The translations under genes and the position numbers were made by a program. Shown here in pieces: positions 1,246 through 16,189 of a stretch of DNA of 16,838 bases. The notes under the pieces are model-generated. The model ran no database searches. It worked only from the letters and a program-made list of their open reading frames with translations, and was not told the origin of the DNA. Numbering within the stretch: the first letter of the stretch is position 1; every line of letters begins with the position of its first letter. The stretch is from an uncultured Planctomycetaceae bacterium (GTDB lineage: Bacteria; Planctomycetota; Planctomycetia; Pirellulales; Thermoguttaceae), in NCBI GenBank assembly GCA_964618095.1, contig CAZUAM010000069.1:1-16838 (forward strand). The letters are read 5' to 3'.

Positions 1246-1569
1246 GGGCCGCCCGTCCGGCCAGTGGCCTGTGGCACTGAATCGAGGCTGTTCGGGAACT
1301 CGGATTCGTGGAAAGCCGCGACCAGTGGTCGCGGAATTCCGCCGCCACTGGCGGCGGCTTTACACGGCGAACTGGGGCATCGAAATCACGTGTTCGCGAG
1401 AGTTTCCCGCGACGCGTTGCGTCCCGGCTACAAGCCATTACTGCTGCGACAAACCACTGGTGGAGCGAAGGGCCCGGGAATTGCCCTTTCCCCCCAAAGG
1501 AATTGCCGCAACTCGTTTTCGCGCCGCGGGTTACGATTCCGGCCGTTGAAAGCTCGGGCGGGCCTGGTT

Positions 1570-2499
1570 ATGATGGAGTTAGCCCTCATGGAAGGTGGAA
1601 GGACCCGTGTTTCTCAGCAGCAGTCCGCTGGCGTGCTCATCCTACTGACCAACGACGACGGAGTATATGCCCCCGGCTTGGCCGCGCTCGAACGCCAGTT
1701 GCGGCGCCTGGGCGAGCTCTGGGTGGTGGCTCCGGCGGCAGAGCAAAGCGGGGTGGGACACTCGATCACCTATCTGACGCCGCTGATCGTCAAGGAGGTC
1801 TTCCACGGCAAACGGCGCTGGGGCTGGGCGGTCGAGGGCAGCCCGGCCGATTGCGTCAAGCTGGGCATTACGGACCTCTGTCCCCGGCCGCCGGAGCTGA
1901 TCGTCAGCGGGATCAACGGCGGGCTAAACGCGGGGATCAACGTGCTCTACTCGGGCACGGTGGCGGCGGCAATCGAAGGGGCGTTTTTCGGGATTACCAG
2001 TGTGGCGGTCTCGTTGGAGTACGACGAGCACGCCCAGTTCGACAAGGCCGCCCGGCTGGCACGCGAGATCATCCAGCAGGTCCTGGAAAAGAAGGGACCC
2101 GAGCCGCAACTGTACAACCTGAATATCCCCACGGCCGCCCTGGAGGGGACGCCCAAGGTGAGCATCGTGCCCATGGACGTCACCCGATACGGCGACAAAT
2201 TCGAGAAGCGAACCGATCCCTGGGGTCGCGAGTACTATTGGCTGACGGGCGAACCGCCCACGGCAACCGAAGGAGAGGAGACCGACCTCTCGGCATTGGC
2301 CAAGGGCCAGGTGACGCTGACGCCGTTGGACTACAACATGACCAGAAAGTCGGTCCTGGCCCAGATGCAGCCGTGGCAGTTCCGCCTGGCCGAGGTTCGG
2401 TCGGAGGATGGTCCGGAGGACGAAGCCGGCTCGCGAAGGCCGGTGATCAGATCGGCACGAAAAATGCGGCAGGTGGTATCTGATCAACCTGACCAGTAG
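1570..2499 (+). CDS. surE: 5'/3'-nucleotidase SurE, with a roughly 50-aa C-terminal extension beyond the usual SurE fold.
   Basis: The translation contains ...GVLILLTNDDGVYAPGLAALERQL..WVVAPAAEQSGVGHSITYLTPL..SGINGGLNAGINVLYSGTVAAAIEGAFFGITSVAVSL...LTPLDYNMT, which is a canonical SurE N-terminal DDG motif and core. The start is uncertain. In-frame ATGs occur at 1570, 1573 and 1588, and a GTG at 1633 would give the classic M-ILLTNDDG N-terminus. The ORF-track start at 1264 is far upstream of the conserved domain. The TAG stop is at 2497-2499. Confidence 0.85.
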   Translation: MMELALMEGGRTRVSQQQSAGVLILLTNDDGVYAPGLAALERQLRRLGELWVVAPAAEQSGVGHSITYLTPLIVKEVFHGKRRWGWAVEGSPADCVKLGITDLCPRPPELIVSGINGGLNAGINVLYSGTVAAAIEGAFFGITSVAVSLEYDEHAQFDKAARLAREIIQQVLEKKGPEPQLYNLNIPTAALEGTPKVSIVPMDVTRYGDKFEKRTDPWGREYYWLTGEPPTATEGEETDLSALAKGQVTLTPLDYNMTRKSVLAQMQPWQFRLAEVRSEDGPEDEAGSRRPVIRSARKMRQVVSDQPDQ

Positions 2500-2584
2500 T
2501 CCGCCAGTCTTGAGTCGAGCGAATTATTGGAGTTTGCATACACTCACTTGCCGATAGCCGGTGGCTGACGGTCACTGGGCCGGC

Positions 2585-2605
2585 CCGGCAGGCAACGCCT
2601 GCCGG
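2585..2605 (+). terminator. GC-rich hairpin downstream of surE: CCGGCAGGC-AAC-GCCTGCCGG, a 9-bp stem with a 3-nt loop. It could be a terminator or a stability element.
   Basis: The inverted repeat is perfect. It lies 86 nt after the surE stop. A short T run (TTCAGTTTT, 2621-2629) follows only after a 15-nt gap, so it is not a textbook intrinsic terminator. Confidence 0.25.
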
Positions 2606-2659
2606 CCACATAGGAGATGTTCAGTTTTGCCACCCGGCAGCTAACAGGAGGGTGAGAAA

Positions 2660-3199
2660 ATGCAACGGAACCTGACGGCGTTGATCCTGACGACGATCGT
2701 CATCGCCGGCTGCGGAGGCGACGATCCCTTCGACCCCGACAGGCCCCGCCGGGGGCCGGCCACCCAGTTGGGAGGGCAACTGGCGCCGGTCGATGAGCAG
2801 GGGCAGCCCGTGGGCGGTCAGCCGGCTCCCCCGCCGCCGCCATCCTCCGGGCAGCAATCGCAGAACGGGGGCGCACTGCCGCCACCGCCTCCTCCGCCGG
2901 GCGTGAACACGGTGCAAGAGGAAGCCCAACCGGGTGTGACCGGCAAAGGCCAGGACTACGGCGGCGGACTGATCACCACGCCGGTTGCCGCTTACTTTTC
3001 CACCGGGGAACGGATCGTCTTCAACATCCAGATCCCGCATACGCTGCGGAACTACACGGCCTTGCATGGCCCACCGAAAACGCACGAGGAGTTCATGGAG
3101 AAGGTCATCAAGGGTATCGCGCTGCCGGATCTGCCCGACGGCCACCGGTACGTCTTCGACCCGGAAAGGCAACAACTGATGGTGGAACACCCCAGGTAG
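2660..3199 (+). CDS. Small lipoprotein of unknown function. It has a Pro/Gly/Gln-rich linker and a C-terminal domain of about 80 aa.
   Basis: The start is MQRNLTALILTTIVIAGC GGDD, a signal peptide with a lipobox (IAGC). A strong RBS (AGGAGGGTGAGAAA) sits immediately upstream of the ATG. The low-complexity stretch PAPPPPPSSGQQSQNGGALPPPPPPPG is followed by a non-repetitive C-terminal region. Confidence 0.8.
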   Translation: MQRNLTALILTTIVIAGCGGDDPFDPDRPRRGPATQLGGQLAPVDEQGQPVGGQPAPPPPPSSGQQSQNGGALPPPPPPPGVNTVQEEAQPGVTGKGQDYGGGLITTPVAAYFSTGERIVFNIQIPHTLRNYTALHGPPKTHEEFMEKVIKGIALPDLPDGHRYVFDPERQQLMVEHPR

Positions 3200-3324
3200 G
3201 AACGTCGTGCAAGAGAAGCAGGAAAGGACGGGAAGGAACGCAGGCATTTTGACACCTTGAGGTCTCGGCGTTTGGGCACTTCGGCCGCGCGTCGAAACCA
3301 CGCAAGCAACAGGTTTGACTCCCC

Positions 3325-3852
3325 ATGAGACGGCACCTTGCTCTTGTGATCGCCGTGTCGGCGATCGCGCCGGTTTGTGCCACCCCCGCACAAGCCGAAA
3401 GTTGGCTCTTCAAGCCTTCCACGTTCAGCCATCACCCGGTGACGGGCGCCCGGGTCAACCAGTACGCCGCGAAGAAGCCCTCGTACGTACGTACGGATGG
3501 GACTTATCTGGAGAGCGGTTACCGGCACATGCGCTTCAACATCCGCGCCGGCGGCAGCGCCGACCGGCTGCACGTGGTACAGAGCTGGGGCGCAGGCGAA
3601 GCCATCCGGCCCTACGGCGAATGGCAATTTCCCTTCCGTGCCGGCGCCACGCCCTATGGCCCTTGGGGTAATCCGCGGGGACCGTGGACGATGCCGTACG
3701 ACTCCTGGGTAAACCCCTACGGCCAGTGGAACCGCTATCCCTATCTCCCCTGGGGGCCCGGATCCGTCCGTCCGCCTGCCCCCGGGCACGGCCCTCCGGC
3801 TGCGACGCCGTATCAAGCGACGCCTCAACATCCGTCTGGGTATCCCTACTAA
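3325..3852 (+). CDS. Secreted protein of unknown function with an aromatic-rich repeat region (P-Y/W-G-x-W motifs).
   Basis: The N-terminus MRRHLALVIAVSAIAPVCATPAQA|ESW is a Sec signal peptide with an AQA cleavage motif. The C-terminal half has six or more copies of short motifs: PYGEW, PYGPW, PRGPW, PYDSW, PYGQW and PYLPW. It ends in a Pro-rich tail. Confidence 0.7.
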   Translation: MRRHLALVIAVSAIAPVCATPAQAESWLFKPSTFSHHPVTGARVNQYAAKKPSYVRTDGTYLESGYRHMRFNIRAGGSADRLHVVQSWGAGEAIRPYGEWQFPFRAGATPYGPWGNPRGPWTMPYDSWVNPYGQWNRYPYLPWGPGSVRPPAPGHGPPAATPYQATPQHPSGYPY

Positions 3853-3854
3853 GG

Positions 3855-3985
3855 GCCAATCCCAGAACCCGACGCACGAGGAATGGGTGCCTGGGGTCGA
3901 GCGCAGCGAGCCCCCAGGAAGCGAGACCCTAGGGCGTCGCTGCGCTCCGCCGCCAGCCACCCCGATTCCGGTTCTGGGATAGGCT
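3855..3985. repeat. MITE/REP-like palindromic element, copy A. It has roughly 16-bp imperfect terminal inverted repeats and a long internal palindrome.
   Basis: The termini are GCCAATCCCAGAACC (3855-3869) and GGTTCTGGGATAGGCT (3970-3985). The internal palindrome is GGGTGCCTGGGGTCGAGCGCAGCGAGCCCCC ... GGGCGTCGCTGCGCTCCGCCGCCAGCCACCC. CTAAGG flanks both ends (3849-3854 and 3986-3991) and may be a target-site duplication. The core shares more than 30 nt with the element at 8315-8393. The element has no coding capacity. The ORF-track peptides GSLRSTP read through it on both strands because of the palindrome. Confidence 0.55.
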
Positions 3986-4620
3986 CTAAGGATCGGCCGA
4001 CAAACAACTTGGGGAGCGTCCCGATTTTTGCGCAGCGAAAATGGGGCTGTTTCCTTCTGGAATCCTCCGGCGGGGCGTTTTCGAGCGGCTGCTTGGACTC
4101 CGGCCCCCGCTTCTGGAGATCCCTCCCGGCCCCTACAACCGGCCGTTTGCGAAATTCCGCTGGAAATTCGTTTTACGTCACAGCCGGGGAGTCGAACGAA
4201 ACGTACGATTCAGTAGCGGCTCAAAGTTCGATAACAACGGTTCAATTCTCCAGAGCCCCAACGGGGGCCAGAGTCAATCGGCAGAATCGTTTCGCCTTGG
4301 TGTGAAGACGGGAATGCTATGGGGGATTCTGAAGGGACAACAGAAGTGTACCTTCTACCCGTCTGTCGCCTCAAGGCGCTTCGATCCCGACGCGCGCCGT
4401 CTTGGCCGGGACCGACATCCCGGGCAATTGACCGCCGCGTTCCCGGGGCCGAGAGTCAGAGACCGCAGAGCAAGAGTGGGGGGGTGTTCTTTGAAGACCA
4501 TTTGGCTGGGACGGTTCATCAGCGACTCACGTCGCACGGGCATCTTGCCCGCGTTTCCCAGTCACGGGTTCCCAGCCGCGGGCCGGAAGTCTGTGCTACG
4601 CCCCCTGTGAACGATTCGGG

Positions 4621-6012
4621 TTGGACGTTCGGACAAGGCGGGATCGACAGACGGAGAGCACGGTGCAGATCACTCAGAAGACGAGCTTGCAGGGTACAAG
4701 GCTGCTGGGGAAGTGTGCCGGATGTTCGTTGCCCCTGCCGTTGCGACTGCCGGACGGTGACGAGCGGGCCTCGGAGTGGGTGTGCGTCGGCTGCGGCACG
4801 AGCTACAAGGCAATCCTGCTGGAGGACTGGCCGCCCGAGTTTCGTCGATACGTTCGCCGGGCGGCTTCTGGATCCGAGCAGAAGGAGACACCTGTTTCGC
4901 GGGAGGCGCCGGCGGATTTTGCAGTCGAGCACGGTGAGCCGCAGCAGGAACCCGTTGCCACCGGTTTGCCGAGCCGACGGGGAACTCGCTGCGAGATCGA
5001 GACCGCTCTGAGCCGCCGGTTCGACGCGGAAATCGCCCTGGGAATGAACCTCGAGGTACGGCCGCAAGGCGCACCGTTTGTCAAGCGAATCCGCTGGCAC
5101 GGCGTCCAGCCCTACGAGGAGCGGGCAATTCTGCGGTTTCGCGAGCTGATTCACCACGCTTCCGAGCAACTGGGCGATCTGTTTACCGCCTTGAAAGTCG
5201 GCAACTCGGCCGAGCTCCGCGTCACCGAATCGATCTCCCAGGACGGGCTTTCCCGGGTGGCCGAGGACCGCGACCTGTTCGTCAACCTGGGCATCACCTT
5301 GCCTTCGGACGACTACCCCAGTCAGCACGCCCTGCGCGTGAGCATGTTGGCCATGTCGGTCGGGGCAACCCTGGGTTGGGACGAGAGAACGCTCCTCGAC
5401 CTCGGGATCGGCTGTCTGATCCATGACCTGGGGATGTTGAGCCTCGACCGTGCGACGTACCGGGACAAGCGGGTCCTCTCCGCCGCCGATTTCGCGGAAA
5501 TTGCCAAGCACCCCCTGCTCACCTTCGAATTGCTGCACCAACATCTGGACCGCATTCCCACCGCCGCCCGAATGGTCGCCTACCAAATCCACGAACGCTG
5601 CAACGGGACCGGCTACCCTCGCGGCTATCCGGGAAATCGGATTCACAATCTGGCCGGAATCGCCGCCGTGGCCGACGTGTTCGTGGCACTGGTATCTGAA
5701 CGTCCCTATCGACCGGGAATAATTCCTTACCAGGCGGTGAGGAGGATCCTGCACGATACGAGAGACGGTCTCTTCGACGCGGGAGTCGTGCGCGGGCTGC
5801 TGGAGACCGTTTCGCTGTTTCCGATCAGCTCCTACGTCAAGTTGAACGACGGGCGGGTGGGAAAAGTCATTCGTTCCACCGCAGAGCACTATGACCGGCC
5901 GATTATTGAACTCTCGGGGCGCGGCGATCCACTCCAGAAGGCGGATGTGATTGATCTTTCCGGGCAACCGGAAGTGCATATCGCCAGCGTTCTTGCCCAG
6001 CCGGGCTCATAG
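4621..6012 (+). CDS. HD-GYP domain phosphodiesterase (cyclic dinucleotide phosphodiesterase family) with an N-terminal CxxC...CxxC zinc ribbon.
   Basis: The HD-GYP hallmarks are present: HALRVSMLAMSVG, LIHDLGM (the HD motif) and IHERCNGTGYPRGY (the HHExxDGxGYP-type GYP motif). The N-terminus has GKCAGCS...(19)...CVGCGTSY. No ATG is available. The candidate starts are TTG at 4621 or GTG at 4663. Confidence 0.85.
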   Translation: MDVRTRRDRQTESTVQITQKTSLQGTRLLGKCAGCSLPLPLRLPDGDERASEWVCVGCGTSYKAILLEDWPPEFRRYVRRAASGSEQKETPVSREAPADFAVEHGEPQQEPVATGLPSRRGTRCEIETALSRRFDAEIALGMNLEVRPQGAPFVKRIRWHGVQPYEERAILRFRELIHHASEQLGDLFTALKVGNSAELRVTESISQDGLSRVAEDRDLFVNLGITLPSDDYPSQHALRVSMLAMSVGATLGWDERTLLDLGIGCLIHDLGMLSLDRATYRDKRVLSAADFAEIAKHPLLTFELLHQHLDRIPTAARMVAYQIHERCNGTGYPRGYPGNRIHNLAGIAAVADVFVALVSERPYRPGIIPYQAVRRILHDTRDGLFDAGVVRGLLETVSLFPISSYVKLNDGRVGKVIRSTAEHYDRPIIELSGRGDPLQKADVIDLSGQPEVHIASVLAQPGS

Positions 6013-6062: not shown

Positions 6063-6680
6063 TCAGAATCTCCCCGGGTCGTTCTTCCACTCGTAACCCA
6101 CGATCCTCCAGCCCTCCGGTGTCCGGCGCAGGCGGAGAGTAAGATCCTTGATCGGGTAGTTGTCGTGGATCATTTGCCCGGTCAGGTCCTCGAACCGGAC
6201 GTGGCCGGTGATCTGGGCCGTGGCGGTGGGCGGGCTGGTCAGGCGATTGATCTTGATCTCCAGATCGGTGATCTTAACCTTCGTGAATTCGATGCGATTC
6301 AGCGCATAGCGCACCCGCTCCCGCGTTTCCACGGCCGATTCGGCGAGGTACTCTTCTGAGCCGAGCAGGCGGGTTTGGTCGTTGGCCTGGAGTGCCGCCG
6401 CTGCGCCCTCCAGGGTGGCCTCCACCTGCTCCCACTCGGTCACCACCAGCCGCTCCAGGCCCACCCCGCCCAGCACCAGGACCAGCACGCCGGCCATCGC
6501 CCACAGAACCACGCCGCGTCCGCTCATCAGCAGGATGATGCCCAGCACGGCTTCGGCAACGACGCCGAAGAGGATGACGGGCATGGGGTTTTCAACAAGC
6601 GTGGTCATTGCGGAACGCCCAATCTCGAATGACGACTGACGCACACGCCGATGACGCTTATGTTTAGCCGCCGCCGGCAC
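6063..6680 (-). CDS. Membrane protein of unknown function. It has two N-terminal TM helices and a soluble C-terminal domain of about 130 aa.
   Basis: The translation reads ...MTTLVENPMPVILFGVVAEAVLGIILLMSGRGVVLWAMAGVLVLVLGGVGL (two hydrophobic helices) and then a charged domain. A GTG start at 6680 gives a basic N-tail and follows TAGGG by 10 nt. An alternative ATG start at 6608 is possible. Confidence 0.6.
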   Translation of the reverse strand: MPAAAKHKRHRRVRQSSFEIGRSAMTTLVENPMPVILFGVVAEAVLGIILLMSGRGVVLWAMAGVLVLVLGGVGLERLVVTEWEQVEATLEGAAAALQANDQTRLLGSEEYLAESAVETRERVRYALNRIEFTKVKITDLEIKINRLTSPPTATAQITGHVRFEDLTGQMIHDNYPIKDLTLRLRRTPEGWRIVGYEWKNDPGRF

Positions 6681-6695
6681 GGCGGCGCAGCCCTA
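6663..6695. repeat. GC-rich hairpin element TTTAGCCGCCGCCGGCACGGCGGCGCAGCCCTAA. It belongs to the same family as the elements at 16351-16417.
   Basis: It aligns to 16351-16380 (TTTAGCCGCCGATGGCACGTCGGCGCGGCA) with about 4 mismatches over 30 nt. It is internally self-complementary (CGCCGCCG / CGGCGGCG). Confidence 0.4.
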
Positions 6696-6740
6696 ATTGC
6701 AAATTGAAAACTGAAAACTGCAAATTGCAAATTGGACCGG
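6696..6740. repeat. AT-rich heptanucleotide tandem array a, with about 6 units: ATTGCAA ATTGAAA ACTGAAA ACTGCAA ATTGCAA ATTGG.
   Basis: The 7-bp periodicity is perfect. GC content is about 30% in a genome of about 67% GC. The array lies between the eno stop (6790) and the next minus-strand gene start. It shares the 13-mer TGCAAATTGAAAA with the array at 13196-13240. Confidence 0.6.
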
Positions 6741-11735: not shown

Positions 11736-11790
11736 GAATGCTGGATGCTGAATGCTGAATGCCAAGTGCTGAATGCTGAATGCTGAACGA
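11736..11790. repeat. Heptanucleotide tandem array b, with about 7 units of (T/A)GAATGC: GAATGCTG GATGCTG AATGCTG AATGCCA AGTGCTG AATGCTG AATGCTG AAC.
   Basis: The 7-bp periodicity is strict. The array starts 2 nt after the stop of the coiled-coil gene and ends 32 nt before the SPFH start. It is followed by CTGCAATTAGGGAG, which contains the SD. The same TGCAATTAGGG precedes the minus-strand gene at 6680. Confidence 0.6.
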
Positions 11791-13272: not shown

Positions 13273-14799
13273 GTGGATGGTCGCACTTGGAGCCTGGCGC
13301 TGAACACCCTGCTGCTTTGCGGGGCCACCTGCGCGATCAGTCTGCCGCTGGGCAGTGTCTTGTCTTGGCTGCTTGCGCGGACGGATCTGCCGGGGCGGCG
13401 GATCGGGATGCCGCTGTTGGGGCTGATGCTCTTTGTGCCGCTCTATCTCCAGGCCGCCGCGTGGAACGCCGGGTTCGGCGTGCAGGGATGGTTTACGTCG
13501 GCCGTCGCGCTGCCCGCGTGGCTGGAAGAGTGGACGTTGCTGGAAGGCTGGCGGGCGGCGATCTGGATTCATAGCATGGCCGCCGTGCCCTGGGTGGCAC
13601 TCATCGTGGGCCTGGGGCTGCTCCTGGTCGAGCCCGAGCTGGAGGAACAGGCCCTGCTCGACGGCTCGCCGCGGCAGGTACTCTTCCGCGTCACGCTCCG
13701 CAGTGCGCTGCCGGCGGTGGGGGTCGCCGCACTCTGGGTGGCCGTGGTCACGGCGGGCGAGGCGACCGTCACCGAGCTGTTTCAGGTGCGGACCTACGCC
13801 GAGGTGCTGTTTACCCGGCTGGGACCCATGCGCATGGAGCCTGGCGAAGCCGTCCTGGGGATGGGCCCCGGGCTGGCTTTGAGTGCCGGGCTGGTCGTGG
13901 CGGTGCTCCTGGTGTGCGCCAGGCTGCTGCCGCGCCGGCGGCCGATCAGCCTGCGGCGCCGATGGGTCTTCCGGCTGGGCCTTTGGCGGGTGCCGCTGGG
14001 GCTTGCGGTGGGACTGGTGCTGCTGCTGTTGGTCGGCGTGCCGCTGGTGAACCTCTGCTACAAGGCCGGCGTGGTGATCACCCGGACCGACACCGGCTGG
14101 GTGTGGACCTGGTCGGTGCGGAATTGCGGCCGGATGGTGGCCGAATGTCTGGTGGACCATCGCCGCGCGTTCGGCTGGTCGTTGGGCATCGGCGCGTTGG
14201 CGGCCACCGCGGCGGTGGTCGCGGCGATTGCCCTGGCATGGCCGGCCCGGCGTGGCGGCCTGCGGGCGGTGCCGGCCCTGGTGGCTACGGCGGTTTTCCT
14301 GGCGCTGCCGGGGCCGGTGGTCGGGCTGGGGATCATCTGGCTGTTCAACTTTCCGAATTCTCGGCGGCTGTTTTGGCTTTACGACCAACCGATCCCGGCC
14401 CCTTGGATGGCCTTGACGCTTCGCGCCGTGCCGCTGGCGACCTTGATCATGTGGCACGCGCTGCGATCCGTCCCGGCAGAGCTGCTCCAGAGCGCGGCCA
14501 TCGACGGAGCCGGTCCGCTCCGGCGGCTCTGGAGCGTCGCCCTGCGGTGCCGGCTGTCCGCCGTGGCCCTGGCCTGGGTGGTGGCCCTGGCGGTGGCCCT
14601 GGGCGATCTGGGGGCAAGCTTCCTGGTGGTACCCCCTGGAGTGGAGATCCTGTCCATGCTGATTCGCGAAAAGGTCCACTCCGGCCAGGAGTTCGAGGTG
14701 GCCGGGATCTGCCTGGTCCTGGTTCTCCTGTTTGCCGCCGTGGCCGGGATCGCCGCCTGGCTGGCGCGGCGTTGGGGCCGCGGCGTCACCACCGGGTAG
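13273..14799 (+). CDS. Fused two-domain ABC transporter permease (FbpB/ThiP/CysW-type inner-membrane component), with a 5+6 TM arrangement. It is an orphan: no ATPase or substrate-binding gene is nearby.
   Basis: Two EAA loops are present: LEEQALLDGSPRQVLFRVTLRSALPAVG and AELLQSAAIDGAGPLRRLWSVALRCRLSAVAL. There are about 11 hydrophobic helices. It has a GTG start. The N-terminal half begins directly with the conserved NTLLL...LARTDLPGRR helix, so it lacks the extra first TM and loop that the second half has. Confidence 0.8.
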   Translation: MDGRTWSLALNTLLLCGATCAISLPLGSVLSWLLARTDLPGRRIGMPLLGLMLFVPLYLQAAAWNAGFGVQGWFTSAVALPAWLEEWTLLEGWRAAIWIHSMAAVPWVALIVGLGLLLVEPELEEQALLDGSPRQVLFRVTLRSALPAVGVAALWVAVVTAGEATVTELFQVRTYAEVLFTRLGPMRMEPGEAVLGMGPGLALSAGLVVAVLLVCARLLPRRRPISLRRRWVFRLGLWRVPLGLAVGLVLLLLVGVPLVNLCYKAGVVITRTDTGWVWTWSVRNCGRMVAECLVDHRRAFGWSLGIGALAATAAVVAAIALAWPARRGGLRAVPALVATAVFLALPGPVVGLGIIWLFNFPNSRRLFWLYDQPIPAPWMALTLRAVPLATLIMWHALRSVPAELLQSAAIDGAGPLRRLWSVALRCRLSAVALAWVVALAVALGDLGASFLVVPPGVEILSMLIREKVHSGQEFEVAGICLVLVLLFAAVAGIAAWLARRWGRGVTTG

Positions 14800-14834: not shown

Positions 14835-14840
14835 TATAAT
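14835..14840 (+). promoter_or_regulatory. Consensus TATAAT -10 hexamer, 36 nt after the permease stop and 190 nt upstream of the DUF1570 gene.
   Basis: CCGGGTATAATAAAG, followed 5 nt later by TTGAGG. There is no clear -35. Confidence 0.3.
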
Positions 14841-14865
14841 AAAGTTGAGGGCATCAACAACAATC

Positions 14866-15028
14866 GCATAAAGCCGCGACGCAACAATCGCATAAAGCCG
14901 CGACCGTTGGTCGCGCCAGAAGGGAGAGGGCATAGGGGCGCGACGAACGGTCGCGGGTCTGTAAGAACGGCGCGACCAACGGTCGCGGCTTTATGGGAAG
15001 GGCGCGACGAACGGTCGCGGGTTTGTGA
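14866..15028 (+). promoter_or_regulatory. Array of palindromic repeats, either operator-like or a structured 5' leader. It has two direct copies of CAACAATCGCATAAAGCCGCGAC, four CGCGAC(C)-N3-5-(G)GTCGCG palindromes and a perfect 26-bp inverted repeat.
   Basis: 14894-14919 (CATAAAGCCGCGACCGTTGGTCGCGC) is the exact reverse complement of 14969-14994 (GCGCGACCAACGGTCGCGGCTTTATG). GCGCGACGAACGGTCGCGGGTYTGTRAG is repeated at 14937-14964 and 15001-15028. The array abuts the GTG start at 15029. Confidence 0.5.
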
Positions 15029-16189
15029 GTGACGAAGACAACGGTGAACAGCGTGAAGCGACTGACGTGCTTGATCGTACTCTGTTTCGGCTGGGCCGAT
15101 GCTGCGGCCGCCCTGGACCACGTGGTGCTGCGGCGAGGGGGGAAGCAGATCCACGTCGACGGCCGGCTGCTGGTGACCGCCCAGGACGGCGGCCTGTTGG
15201 TGCTGGCCCGCGACGGCGTGCTCTGGGCGGTTCCGCCCGAGCAGCAGGTCAAGCACAGCAGCGACGAGCTGCCCTTCAAACCGCTCTCGCGCGAAGAGAT
15301 GTCGAATCGGCTGCTGGCCGAATTGCCGCCGGGCTTCGACGTTCACCAAACGGCGAATTATCTGATTTGCTATAACACCTCTCGGGCCTACGCGCAGTGG
15401 TGCGGGTCGTTGTTCGAGCGGCTGTACCGGGCGTTTACCAACTACTGGACCCGCCGGGGGTTCAAGCTGTCCGAGCCCGAGTTCCCCTTGGTGGCCGTCG
15501 TATTTGCCGATCAGCGTTCCTACACCGAGTTTTCGAAATCGGAGCTGGGCGACGCGGCCCCTTCGATCATCGGTTACTACAGTCTGCGGACGAGCTGGAT
15601 GATGACGTATGATCTGACAGGCATGGAGGCGCTCAGCCGGTTTGGCAACCGGCGTGCTACGACGGCCCAGATCAACCGGATTCTGGCCCGGCCCGACGCC
15701 CTGCGCCAGGTTTCGACGATCGTCCACGAGGCGACGCATCAGATCGCCTTCAACTGCGGCCTGCACACCCGCTACAGCGATTGCCCGCTGTGGTTCAGCG
15801 AGGGGATCGCGATCTACTTCGAGACGCCCGACCTGCGGAGCAAGCAGGGCTGGAGCGGGATCGGGGGGGTCAACCGGCCGCGGCTGGTGCGGTTTCACCA
15901 GTATCTGAAGCGCCGGCCGCCCGATTCGCTTCAGACCCTGATCGCGGGCGACGAGCGTTTCCGCGATCCCAAGCAGAGCCTCGACGCCTACGCCGAGGCC
16001 TGGGCGCTGACCTACTACCTGATCCGGCGGCACCCGAAGCAGTACCTCGCCTACCTGAAGTCGCTCTCCGAGAAGAAGCCGCTGCTGTCGGACGGTCCCA
16101 AGGTTCGATTGGAGGAGTTCCAGCGGACCTTCGGCGACTTGGAGCAGGTGGATGCCGCGTTTGTGCGGTATCTGATCGGGATTCGTTGA
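15029..16189 (+). CDS. DUF1570-like secreted protein with an HExxH...E zinc-metallopeptidase-type motif (putative gluzincin-like).
   Basis: The signal peptide is VKRLTCLIVLCFGWADAAAA. In-frame GTG starts occur at 15029, 15044 and 15053. The motif HEATHQIAFNCGLHTRYSDCPLWFSEGIAIYFE matches HExxH plus a downstream Glu. The overall size (about 380 aa) and composition match the planctomycete-expanded DUF1570 family as I recall it. Confidence 0.7.
   Translation: MTKTTVNSVKRLTCLIVLCFGWADAAAALDHVVLRRGGKQIHVDGRLLVTAQDGGLLVLARDGVLWAVPPEQQVKHSSDELPFKPLSREEMSNRLLAELPPGFDVHQTANYLICYNTSRAYAQWCGSLFERLYRAFTNYWTRRGFKLSEPEFPLVAVVFADQRSYTEFSKSELGDAAPSIIGYYSLRTSWMMTYDLTGMEALSRFGNRRATTAQINRILARPDALRQVSTIVHEATHQIAFNCGLHTRYSDCPLWFSEGIAIYFETPDLRSKQGWSGIGGVNRPRLVRFHQYLKRRPPDSLQTLIAGDERFRDPKQSLDAYAEAWALTYYLIRRHPKQYLAYLKSLSEKKPLLSDGPKVRLEEFQRTFGDLEQVDAAFVRYLIGIR

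Follow-up and report, generated by a model that had tools for sequence, protein, structure and literature searches.

A 16,838-nt contig from an uncultured Planctomycetaceae bacterium (CAZUAM010000069.1; the whole of it is called the window here, and positions are counted along it) carries a dense block of palindromes and inverted repeats between an ABC-type permease gene and a gene for an HExxH-type DUF1570 protein. We find that this block is about 4.5 copies of one hairpin unit of about 26 nt, with one and a half copies on the minus strand and three on the plus strand, and that the family of this unit is dispersed, extragenic, and independent of gene context. The block probably represents clustered copies of a short palindromic element, dispersed and common in Planctomycetota, that is of the same kind as the repetitive extragenic palindromes (REPs), the bacterial interspersed mosaic elements (BIMEs), and the REP doublets forming hairpins (REPINs). 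A sequence-only reading of the same DNA had proposed either a multi-site operator for the DUF1570 gene or a structured 5′ leader, cis-regulatory RNA or small RNA. Given that the unit occurs at many unrelated intergenic sites, an outcome which that reading had itself named as a refutation, a gene-specific operator or riboswitch is unsupported, and the idea that an operator or leader RNA is dedicated to this gene is largely refuted.

Read from its foot, the unit is (Y)ATAAAG-CCGCGACC-NNN-GGTCGCGG, in which an A/T-rich foot (Y-A-T-A-A-A-G) leads into a perfect, G+C-rich stem of 7 to 9 bp (CCGCGACC/GGTCGCGG) with a 3-nt loop. In a position matrix of 148 copies, conservation was confined to positions −1 to +24 and the flanks were random; the element is thus the 26-nt unit alone, with no larger body. 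The unit is not symmetric, with Y-A-T-A-A-A-G on one side and merely S on the other, and the loop (A-M-Y) has a direction relative to the foot. A few rare stems have changed on both arms at once (CGCGGCC/GGCCGCG and CGCCGCC/GGCGGCG). Single stem mismatches were divided between 8 G-U and 6 A-C pairs, and thus there is neither a strand bias nor a hint that one RNA strand is under selection.

At least five unrelated loci share an arrangement in which a duplicated half unit follows a full one (window positions 14858 to 14904, and loci L025, L066, L092, L098, and L128, in the last of which it lies in an enolase gap at about 2990 to 3040). The duplicate extends from the loop or the 3′ arm across the foot to a few bases of flank, and the period is 15 to 43 nt. 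This architecture may have arisen through a break at the hairpin or a switch of template there.

Family-wide counts are based on a scan of one genome per species with the pattern CGCGACNNNNGGTCGCGGNTTT, which gave at least 119 stretches; being an exact-match pattern, it favors perfect copies in the sample. Taxa are named here as in the deposited metagenome-assembled genomes (MAGs), and genes were called with a home-made codon-usage caller that matched public gene calls on control loci. Apart from about six, the matches listed belong to assemblies with the label Planctomycetota or to a single bin with the label Nealsonbacteria, in which consensus copies occur. The carriers are labelled Pirellulales, Pirellulaceae, Thermoguttaceae, Planctomycetaceae, and Phycisphaerae, hence at least two classes, and several single MAGs had copies on 4 to at least 7 separate contigs. 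A second set was assembled blind to the motif, by a protein-guided scan of metagenome contigs (an exact-pattern scan of such contigs for the DUF1570 start region gave no match); it comprises 80 DUF1570 orthologue loci, 55 to 81% identical, in 548 kb. In unbiased DNA of close relatives, there was roughly one site per 8 to 19 kb.

The copies avoid coding DNA and have no preferred company. Although 74% of the sampled DNA was called coding, 138 of 162 hairpins (85%) were intergenic, mostly near gene 3′ ends, and the neighboring genes span at least 128 Pfam families, mostly housekeeping enzymes. A hidden Markov model of DUF1570 orthologues found no DUF1570 gene in 113 repeat-bearing tiles (778 kb), and thus clustering of the palindromes upstream of other DUF1570 paralogues was not borne out there. 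Turnover is visible in gaps common to the close relatives L003 and L128, which hold different repeats. Only 3 matches were on viral contigs, which gives no hint of a phage origin. Rfam 15 gave no match to the window at gathering thresholds, and raising E to 10 yielded chance matches to long hairpins. Our literature search (the sequence itself, and REP, REPIN, terminator or palindrome with Planctomycetes) found no description of the unit, which is not proof that none exists. The commonest neighbor family was Uma2, of putative restriction endonuclease-like proteins, with 4 of 106 neighbors; at L085, tandem Uma2-family genes lie between four hairpin copies (2297 to 5220).

Placement follows strict rules. 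Units occupied 59 of 286 tandem gaps and 22 of 80 convergent gaps, but only 9 of 75 divergent ones, a depletion in divergent promoter gaps. The 129 sites include 97 singles (75 one-sided, and 22 that are full palindromes and have a foot at either side) and 23 inverted doublets. All 23 doublets are tails-out, with the feet pointing outwards, and none is tails-in; both sites in the window conform. Among one-sided singles, the foot side faced the 3′ end of a gene in 39 of 53, at a median distance of 10 nt, and the other side always lay at least 16 nt from a gene end. The TAA within the foot (...A-TAA-AGCCGCGACC) serves as the stop codon of the gene in 17 of 84 cases, and these make up 17 of the 19 "TAA AG" stops in the sample. 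The possibility that an ATG or GTG in the tail serves as a start codon was rejected, there being no frame enrichment (41 versus 29 and 34). Open reading frames (ORFs) between nearby copies are ordinary genes.

These rules bear first on the operator proposal. A dimeric DNA-binding protein, whether a repressor of DUF1570 or a global regulator, could be imagined to bind the 7-3-7 dyad CGCGACC-N3-GGTCGCG; its symmetry is perfect, its arms are strongly conserved in sequence, and several sites lie side by side between the −10 box and the start codon. We consider this very improbable. The sites crowd at stop codons and are underrepresented precisely in divergent promoter gaps, and the genes beside them are functionally unrelated and define no regulon. 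An asymmetric loop and a one-sided foot travel with the dyad, its stem has variants compensated on both arms, and a tails-out rule for doublets would be meaningless for a dyad operator.

The same rules fit better, but incompletely, with a family of terminators or insulators, that is, hairpins selected as bidirectional transcription stops and not mobile, which would here terminate the permease mRNA and keep the promoter and leader of DUF1570 shielded. Like intrinsic terminators, the units form a stable G+C-rich stem followed by TTT and lie after genes; in both the palindromic singles, flanked by an A-run and a T-run, and the tails-out doublets, the last hairpin on either strand is followed by a T-run. 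Against this, the tail has only 3 to 4 T (GCTTTATG, GGTTTGTG, GGTCTGTA), fewer than the at least 5 U in 8 nt that directly follow the stem of an intrinsic terminator, and a terminator scan called none of the hairpin units; its sole call in the block was a weak 6-pair minus-strand stem at 14863 to 14880, where the half unit has its tail and flank. Most one-sided singles (the 39 of 53 above) are antisense to the gene beside them, and thus the RNA of that gene would lack a U-run past the hairpin. The units in the window come after a conserved TATAAT and not between the permease stop and the promoter. Finally, one identical sequence across loci and classes is abnormal for terminators. Taken with these points, termination is a rather unlikely reason for the family, despite its affinity for gene ends.

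DNA uptake sequences of Neisseria also occur as inverted pairs after genes. The family resembles them in being short, conserved within a taxon, overrepresented after genes, and often arranged as hairpin-forming inverted pairs; it differs in that the unit is itself a hairpin with a foot and in its apposition to stop codons, which is not a feature of uptake sequences. We know of no competence system in the organisms that carry the unit.

The closer likeness is to the REP, BIME, and REPIN elements of Proteobacteria and their REP-associated tyrosine transposases (RAYTs). Those, too, are short palindromes, dispersed and extragenic and often near gene 3′ ends, which occur as singles, inverted doublets, and clusters and change quickly in content between related genomes. 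At 26 nt, with a stem of 7 to 9 bp and a 3-nt loop, the unit falls within the size of a REP, an imperfect palindrome of 20 to 40 nt. The doublet spacers are not conserved, and therefore the doublet is not a replicating REPIN unit. By analogy, we imagine that copies of the unit would be made and inserted as hairpin-forming single-stranded DNA by an enzyme acting in trans, possibly of the HuH-Y1 type, that recognizes the foot and the hairpin; the strand-specific foot, the asymmetric loop, and the rule that the foot faces the stop together suggest such recognition. It may insert beside A/T-rich, ATAAA-like sequence, such as is found at stop codons or just past a TATAAT box, in the manner of HuH-Y1 transposases. 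Once inserted, the units might be transcribed as very stable RNA hairpins with a generic action, for instance by making transcription pause between the permease and DUF1570 genes, insulating it there or affecting the stability of the leader. They would not be a sensor or an operator dedicated to DUF1570.

The block itself is easily read in terms of the unit (Table 1). The sequence CAACAATCGCATAAAGCCGCGAC occurs twice, at 14858 to 14880 and 14882 to 14904, as 23 nt with 100% identity and a period of 24 nt, so that the direct repeats noted before are indeed two perfect copies. All four palindromes reported for the block are present as CGCGAC-N5-GTCGCG (beginning at 14899, 14939, 14971, and 15003), and a fifth lies at 1317; these five exact matches compare with 0.01 expected in the window from 200 shuffles. 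A long inverted repeat, previously described as 26 bp with its left arm at 14894 to 14919, is perfect but 27 bp long (14891 to 14917 versus 14969 to 14995). It is no separate feature, because 14891 to 14917 is simply the unit in opposite orientation. Positions 14937 to 15026 form a 32-nt tandem repeat with 2.8 copies. A CRISPR-like array, with 30-nt repeats at a 32-nt period, was considered and rejected because spacers are absent and the unit is dispersed.

Table 1. Features of the window that bear on the repeat block and on the second site of the unit.
Feature	Position	Strand	Remarks
Second site, consensus unit	1312..1333	-	Left member of an inverted doublet, 13.5 kb from the block
Second site, partner unit	1340..1361	+	Stem variant CGCCGCC-ACT-GGCGGCG-GCTTTACA
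Permease gene, ABC-type, BPD_transp_1	13273..14799	+	Upstream neighbor; stop about 60 nt ahead of the first repeat
TATAAT, probable −10 box of the DUF1570 promoter	14835..14840	+	Exact hexamer; putative promoter
Half unit (3′ arm, foot, 10-nt flank)	14858..14880	-	GTCGCGGCTTTATGCGATTGTTG on the minus strand; first member of the 24-nt direct repeat
Full unit	14891..14917	-	Plus strand CATAAAG-CCGCGACC-GTT-GGTCGCG-CC; left arm of the 27-bp inverted repeat
Unit 2, variant loop-closing pair and tail	14937..14965	+	CGCGACG-AAC-GGTCGCG-GGTCTGTAAG; 3 mismatches to the family consensus
Unit 3, perfect consensus copy	14969..14995	+	GG-CGCGACC-AAC-GGTCGCG-GCTTTATG; right arm of the 27-bp inverted repeat
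Unit 4	15001..15027	+	CGCGACG-AAC-GGTCGCG-GGTTTGTG; 93% identical to unit 2
DUF1570 gene (HExxH-type)	15053..16189	+	Pfam PF07607, E = 2e-40; start revised, more likely GTG 15053

The perfect TATAAT reported upstream is there, as an exact hexamer; a consensus promoter scan found no sigma-70 pair and no −35 element to match it. At the other end, the last unit does finish beside a GTG (at about 15027 to 15029), as had been said, but the start codon is more likely the GTG at 15053 than that at 15029, because orthologues are 378 amino acids long and L001, whose protein is 95% identical, has an ATG at the equivalent codon. With this start, the last hairpin ends 33 nt upstream of the gene. Lying between the TATAAT and the start codon, the block would thus be a heavily structured 5′ leader. 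Folding of 14845 to 15055 predicted −100.8 kcal/mol, far more stable than shuffled sequences (z = −7.4). As a physical description, then, the structured leader stands; as a dedicated cis-regulatory or small RNA it is not supported, since the unit is generic and matches no Rfam family.

Orthologues help to reconstruct how this leader arose. The TATAAT is at the equivalent place in most of them (57 to 81% identity), even when the upstream gene is different; the order permease-DUF1570 is kept in L003, L125, and L128. From TATAAT to start, the window has 212 nt, L003 and L128 have about 130 nt, and L125 and L127 have about 46 to 50 nt; the shortest leaders, of 20 to 50 nt, are those of L134, L138, L141, L125, and L127. 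Units between the TATAAT and the start were also found in L133, L135, L137, L140, L142, and L148 (65 to 78% identity). The arrangement of units in the leader differs among the window, L001, L002, L003, and L128. Because arrangements differ among relatives and the 24-nt and 32-nt tandem duplications are perfect, the array must have grown by insertion followed by local duplication, in a leader that was originally 20 to 50 nt long. We read the DUF1570 leader as a permissive or preferred landing site past a strong −10 box, where repeats stay and are duplicated.

Several observations weigh against a REP-like element that behaves alike at every site, and the first concerns this leader. In the motif-blind loci, about 5 of about 70 leaders were occupied, compared with about 2 of 236 other gaps, an enrichment of about 10-fold; only 2 to 3 other unit sites occur in the 548 kb. 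A generic model covers this enrichment, and the recurrent layout of the leader units (a minus unit 9 to 27 nt past the TATAAT, a plus unit 10 to 40 nt before the start), only via a hot spot or long retention. The enrichment is what support remains for a local role, which is possible.

One can envision, in particular, that units of generic origin were retained by selection as a structured 5′ untranslated region that controls the stability, attenuation or translation of the DUF1570 mRNA; in one form, a 5′-terminal hairpin and a start-proximal hairpin could pair alternatively with each other. Besides the enrichment and the layout, this would agree with the long-range pairing in the predicted fold and with the spread of unit-bearing orthologues (65 to 95% identity) over several clades of a neighbor-joining tree. 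Yet many orthologues have no unit in the leader (L132, at 81% identity, L134, L138, L127, and others), and where units exist, several have decayed (the plus unit of L137, L142, the plus unit of L003, the minus unit of L148, and L125, whose leader holds a remnant only). Where the unit is absent, unrelated hairpin or inverted-repeat families often occupy the leader, as in L132, L154, L143, L139, and L147. Copy number and spacers vary freely, and the stem mismatches, as described above, favor neither strand. We regard selection for such a leader as unlikely.

The other difficulties for a REP-like origin lie in the element and its enzyme. The unit has neither the GT[AG]G nor the CGTC tag of REPs and REPINs, carrying the foot Y-A-T-A-A-A-G instead, and in the sampled DNA, a small sample, no RAYT gene was flanked by the unit. 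A regular expression for the HuH and Y motifs found no transposase flanked by it there and only one RAYT-like gene, a HuH-Y1 gene (HLH, YVHWNP) at L063 4342 to 4906, which is flanked by a GTAG-tagged REP of a different family, GTAGGGTGGGTCGAGCG. Unlike REPs and REPINs, moreover, the unit has a sequence common to at least two classes of a phylum; near-identity of 26 nt across two classes is unusual for selfish REPs and may reflect a conserved function. As a separate observation, GTAG-tagged REPs (GTAGGGTGGGTCGAGCGCAGCGAGCCCCACC) lie at L063 4240 to 4330, 4915 to 4990, and 3322 to 3350 and represent a separate REP system in the same phylum.

The class 3 HuH-Y1 (TnpA) proteins offer a lead to the putative enzyme. 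They are described as principally found in Planctomycetes, and their genes are flanked by hairpins of the form CnGA-GCCGCGACC-GTnA-GGGAGCG, of which about 600 copies were reported in one host, Solibacter (PMC6006769, main text and supplementary table S1). These hairpins, also about 26 nt long, have a 5′ foot directly before an identical 9-nt arm, GCCGCGACC. They differ from the unit in the foot (CnGA versus (A)TAAA), in the loop (4 versus 3 nt), and in the 3′ arm, where GGGAGCG, with G-A/A-G mismatches and a weak structure, departs at 2 of 7 positions from the GGTCGCG that gives the unit a perfect stem. The sole planctomycete example in the table of that paper has a sequence unlike the unit. 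A motif regular expression found no class-3-like HuH-Y1 gene in 1.5 Mb of loci, a further point against the REP-like interpretation.

More tentatively, the units may form an undescribed hairpin family spanning the Planctomycetota, whose near-identical sequence across classes would be maintained by a conserved hairpin-recognizing protein, possibly a class 3 HuH-Y1. Insertion would then be foot first at stop codons, sometimes supplying the TAA, and doublets would always be tails-out; in the DUF1570 leader, the units would have been co-opted as a structured regulator.

For annotation, the consequence of the REP-like interpretation is that the palindrome is best treated in Planctomycetota genomes as a dispersed repeat to be masked, and not called operator, riboswitch, terminator or small RNA locus by locus; it can also cause spurious start and stop calls and fold-back artefacts in assemblies. 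A phylum-wide REP-like family with strict rules, but with neither a canonical tag nor a RAYT partner, provides a handle on copying and targeting and is relevant to the question of whether class 3 HuH-Y1 proteins, which are poorly understood, are the enzymes responsible. The DUF1570 leader, as a recurrent landing or retention site past a conserved −10 box, is a place in which generic repeats turning regulatory can be tested directly.

The second site in the window is an inverted doublet (1312 to 1361) in the gap from which a GATase/NAD-synthase-like gene (minus strand) and SurE (plus strand) diverge. In its partner unit, two stem positions are altered on both arms, so that pairing is kept. A long SurE ORF begins at 1264, yet the SurE domain starts only at residue 126; the true start is probably near 1600 to 1640, which places the doublet in non-coding DNA.

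Other features were seen around the DUF1570 locus in relatives. The start of contig L002 (1 to 125) is a diverged reverse complement of the 5′ end of DUF1570 with its last hairpin, facing the real gene; it is a piece of a divergent paralogue, or else the assembler folded back at the inverted repeats. The dnaA gene lies 1.5 to 5 kb downstream of DUF1570 in L003 (12827 to 14239), L125 (13511 to 14938), L127 (16383 to 17834), and L128 (11819 to 13231), and thus the locus is probably close to the replication origin; in L003 and L128, hairpin copies lie at the 3′ end of dnaA. Within the DUF1570 coding sequence of the window, a 27-nt tandem repeat of 2.3 copies (15157 to 15218) encodes a repeated DG(R/G)LLV-type peptide near the N terminus.

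Repeats of other kinds are also present. Heptamers are repeated in tandem in intergenic gaps of the window, AATTGCA 5.7 times at 6695 to 6734 and GAATGCT 7.4 times at 11736 to 11787, and similar short-period repeats are near hairpins elsewhere, for example in L034, L048, and L089; an association of such microsatellites with the hairpin family was rejected (2/129 versus 8/259). A second dispersed hairpin family, GTTTAGC(N)GCCGCCGGCACGGCGGC, occurred 14 times in the 1.5 Mb of loci, partly as inverted pairs, with sites in the window (6663 to 6690), L009, L062, L097, L143, L144, L154, L165, and L171. In L154 it lies in the DUF1570 leader, and that of L143 holds a diverged relative, GTTTAGCCGCCGCGTCCACGCGGCG.

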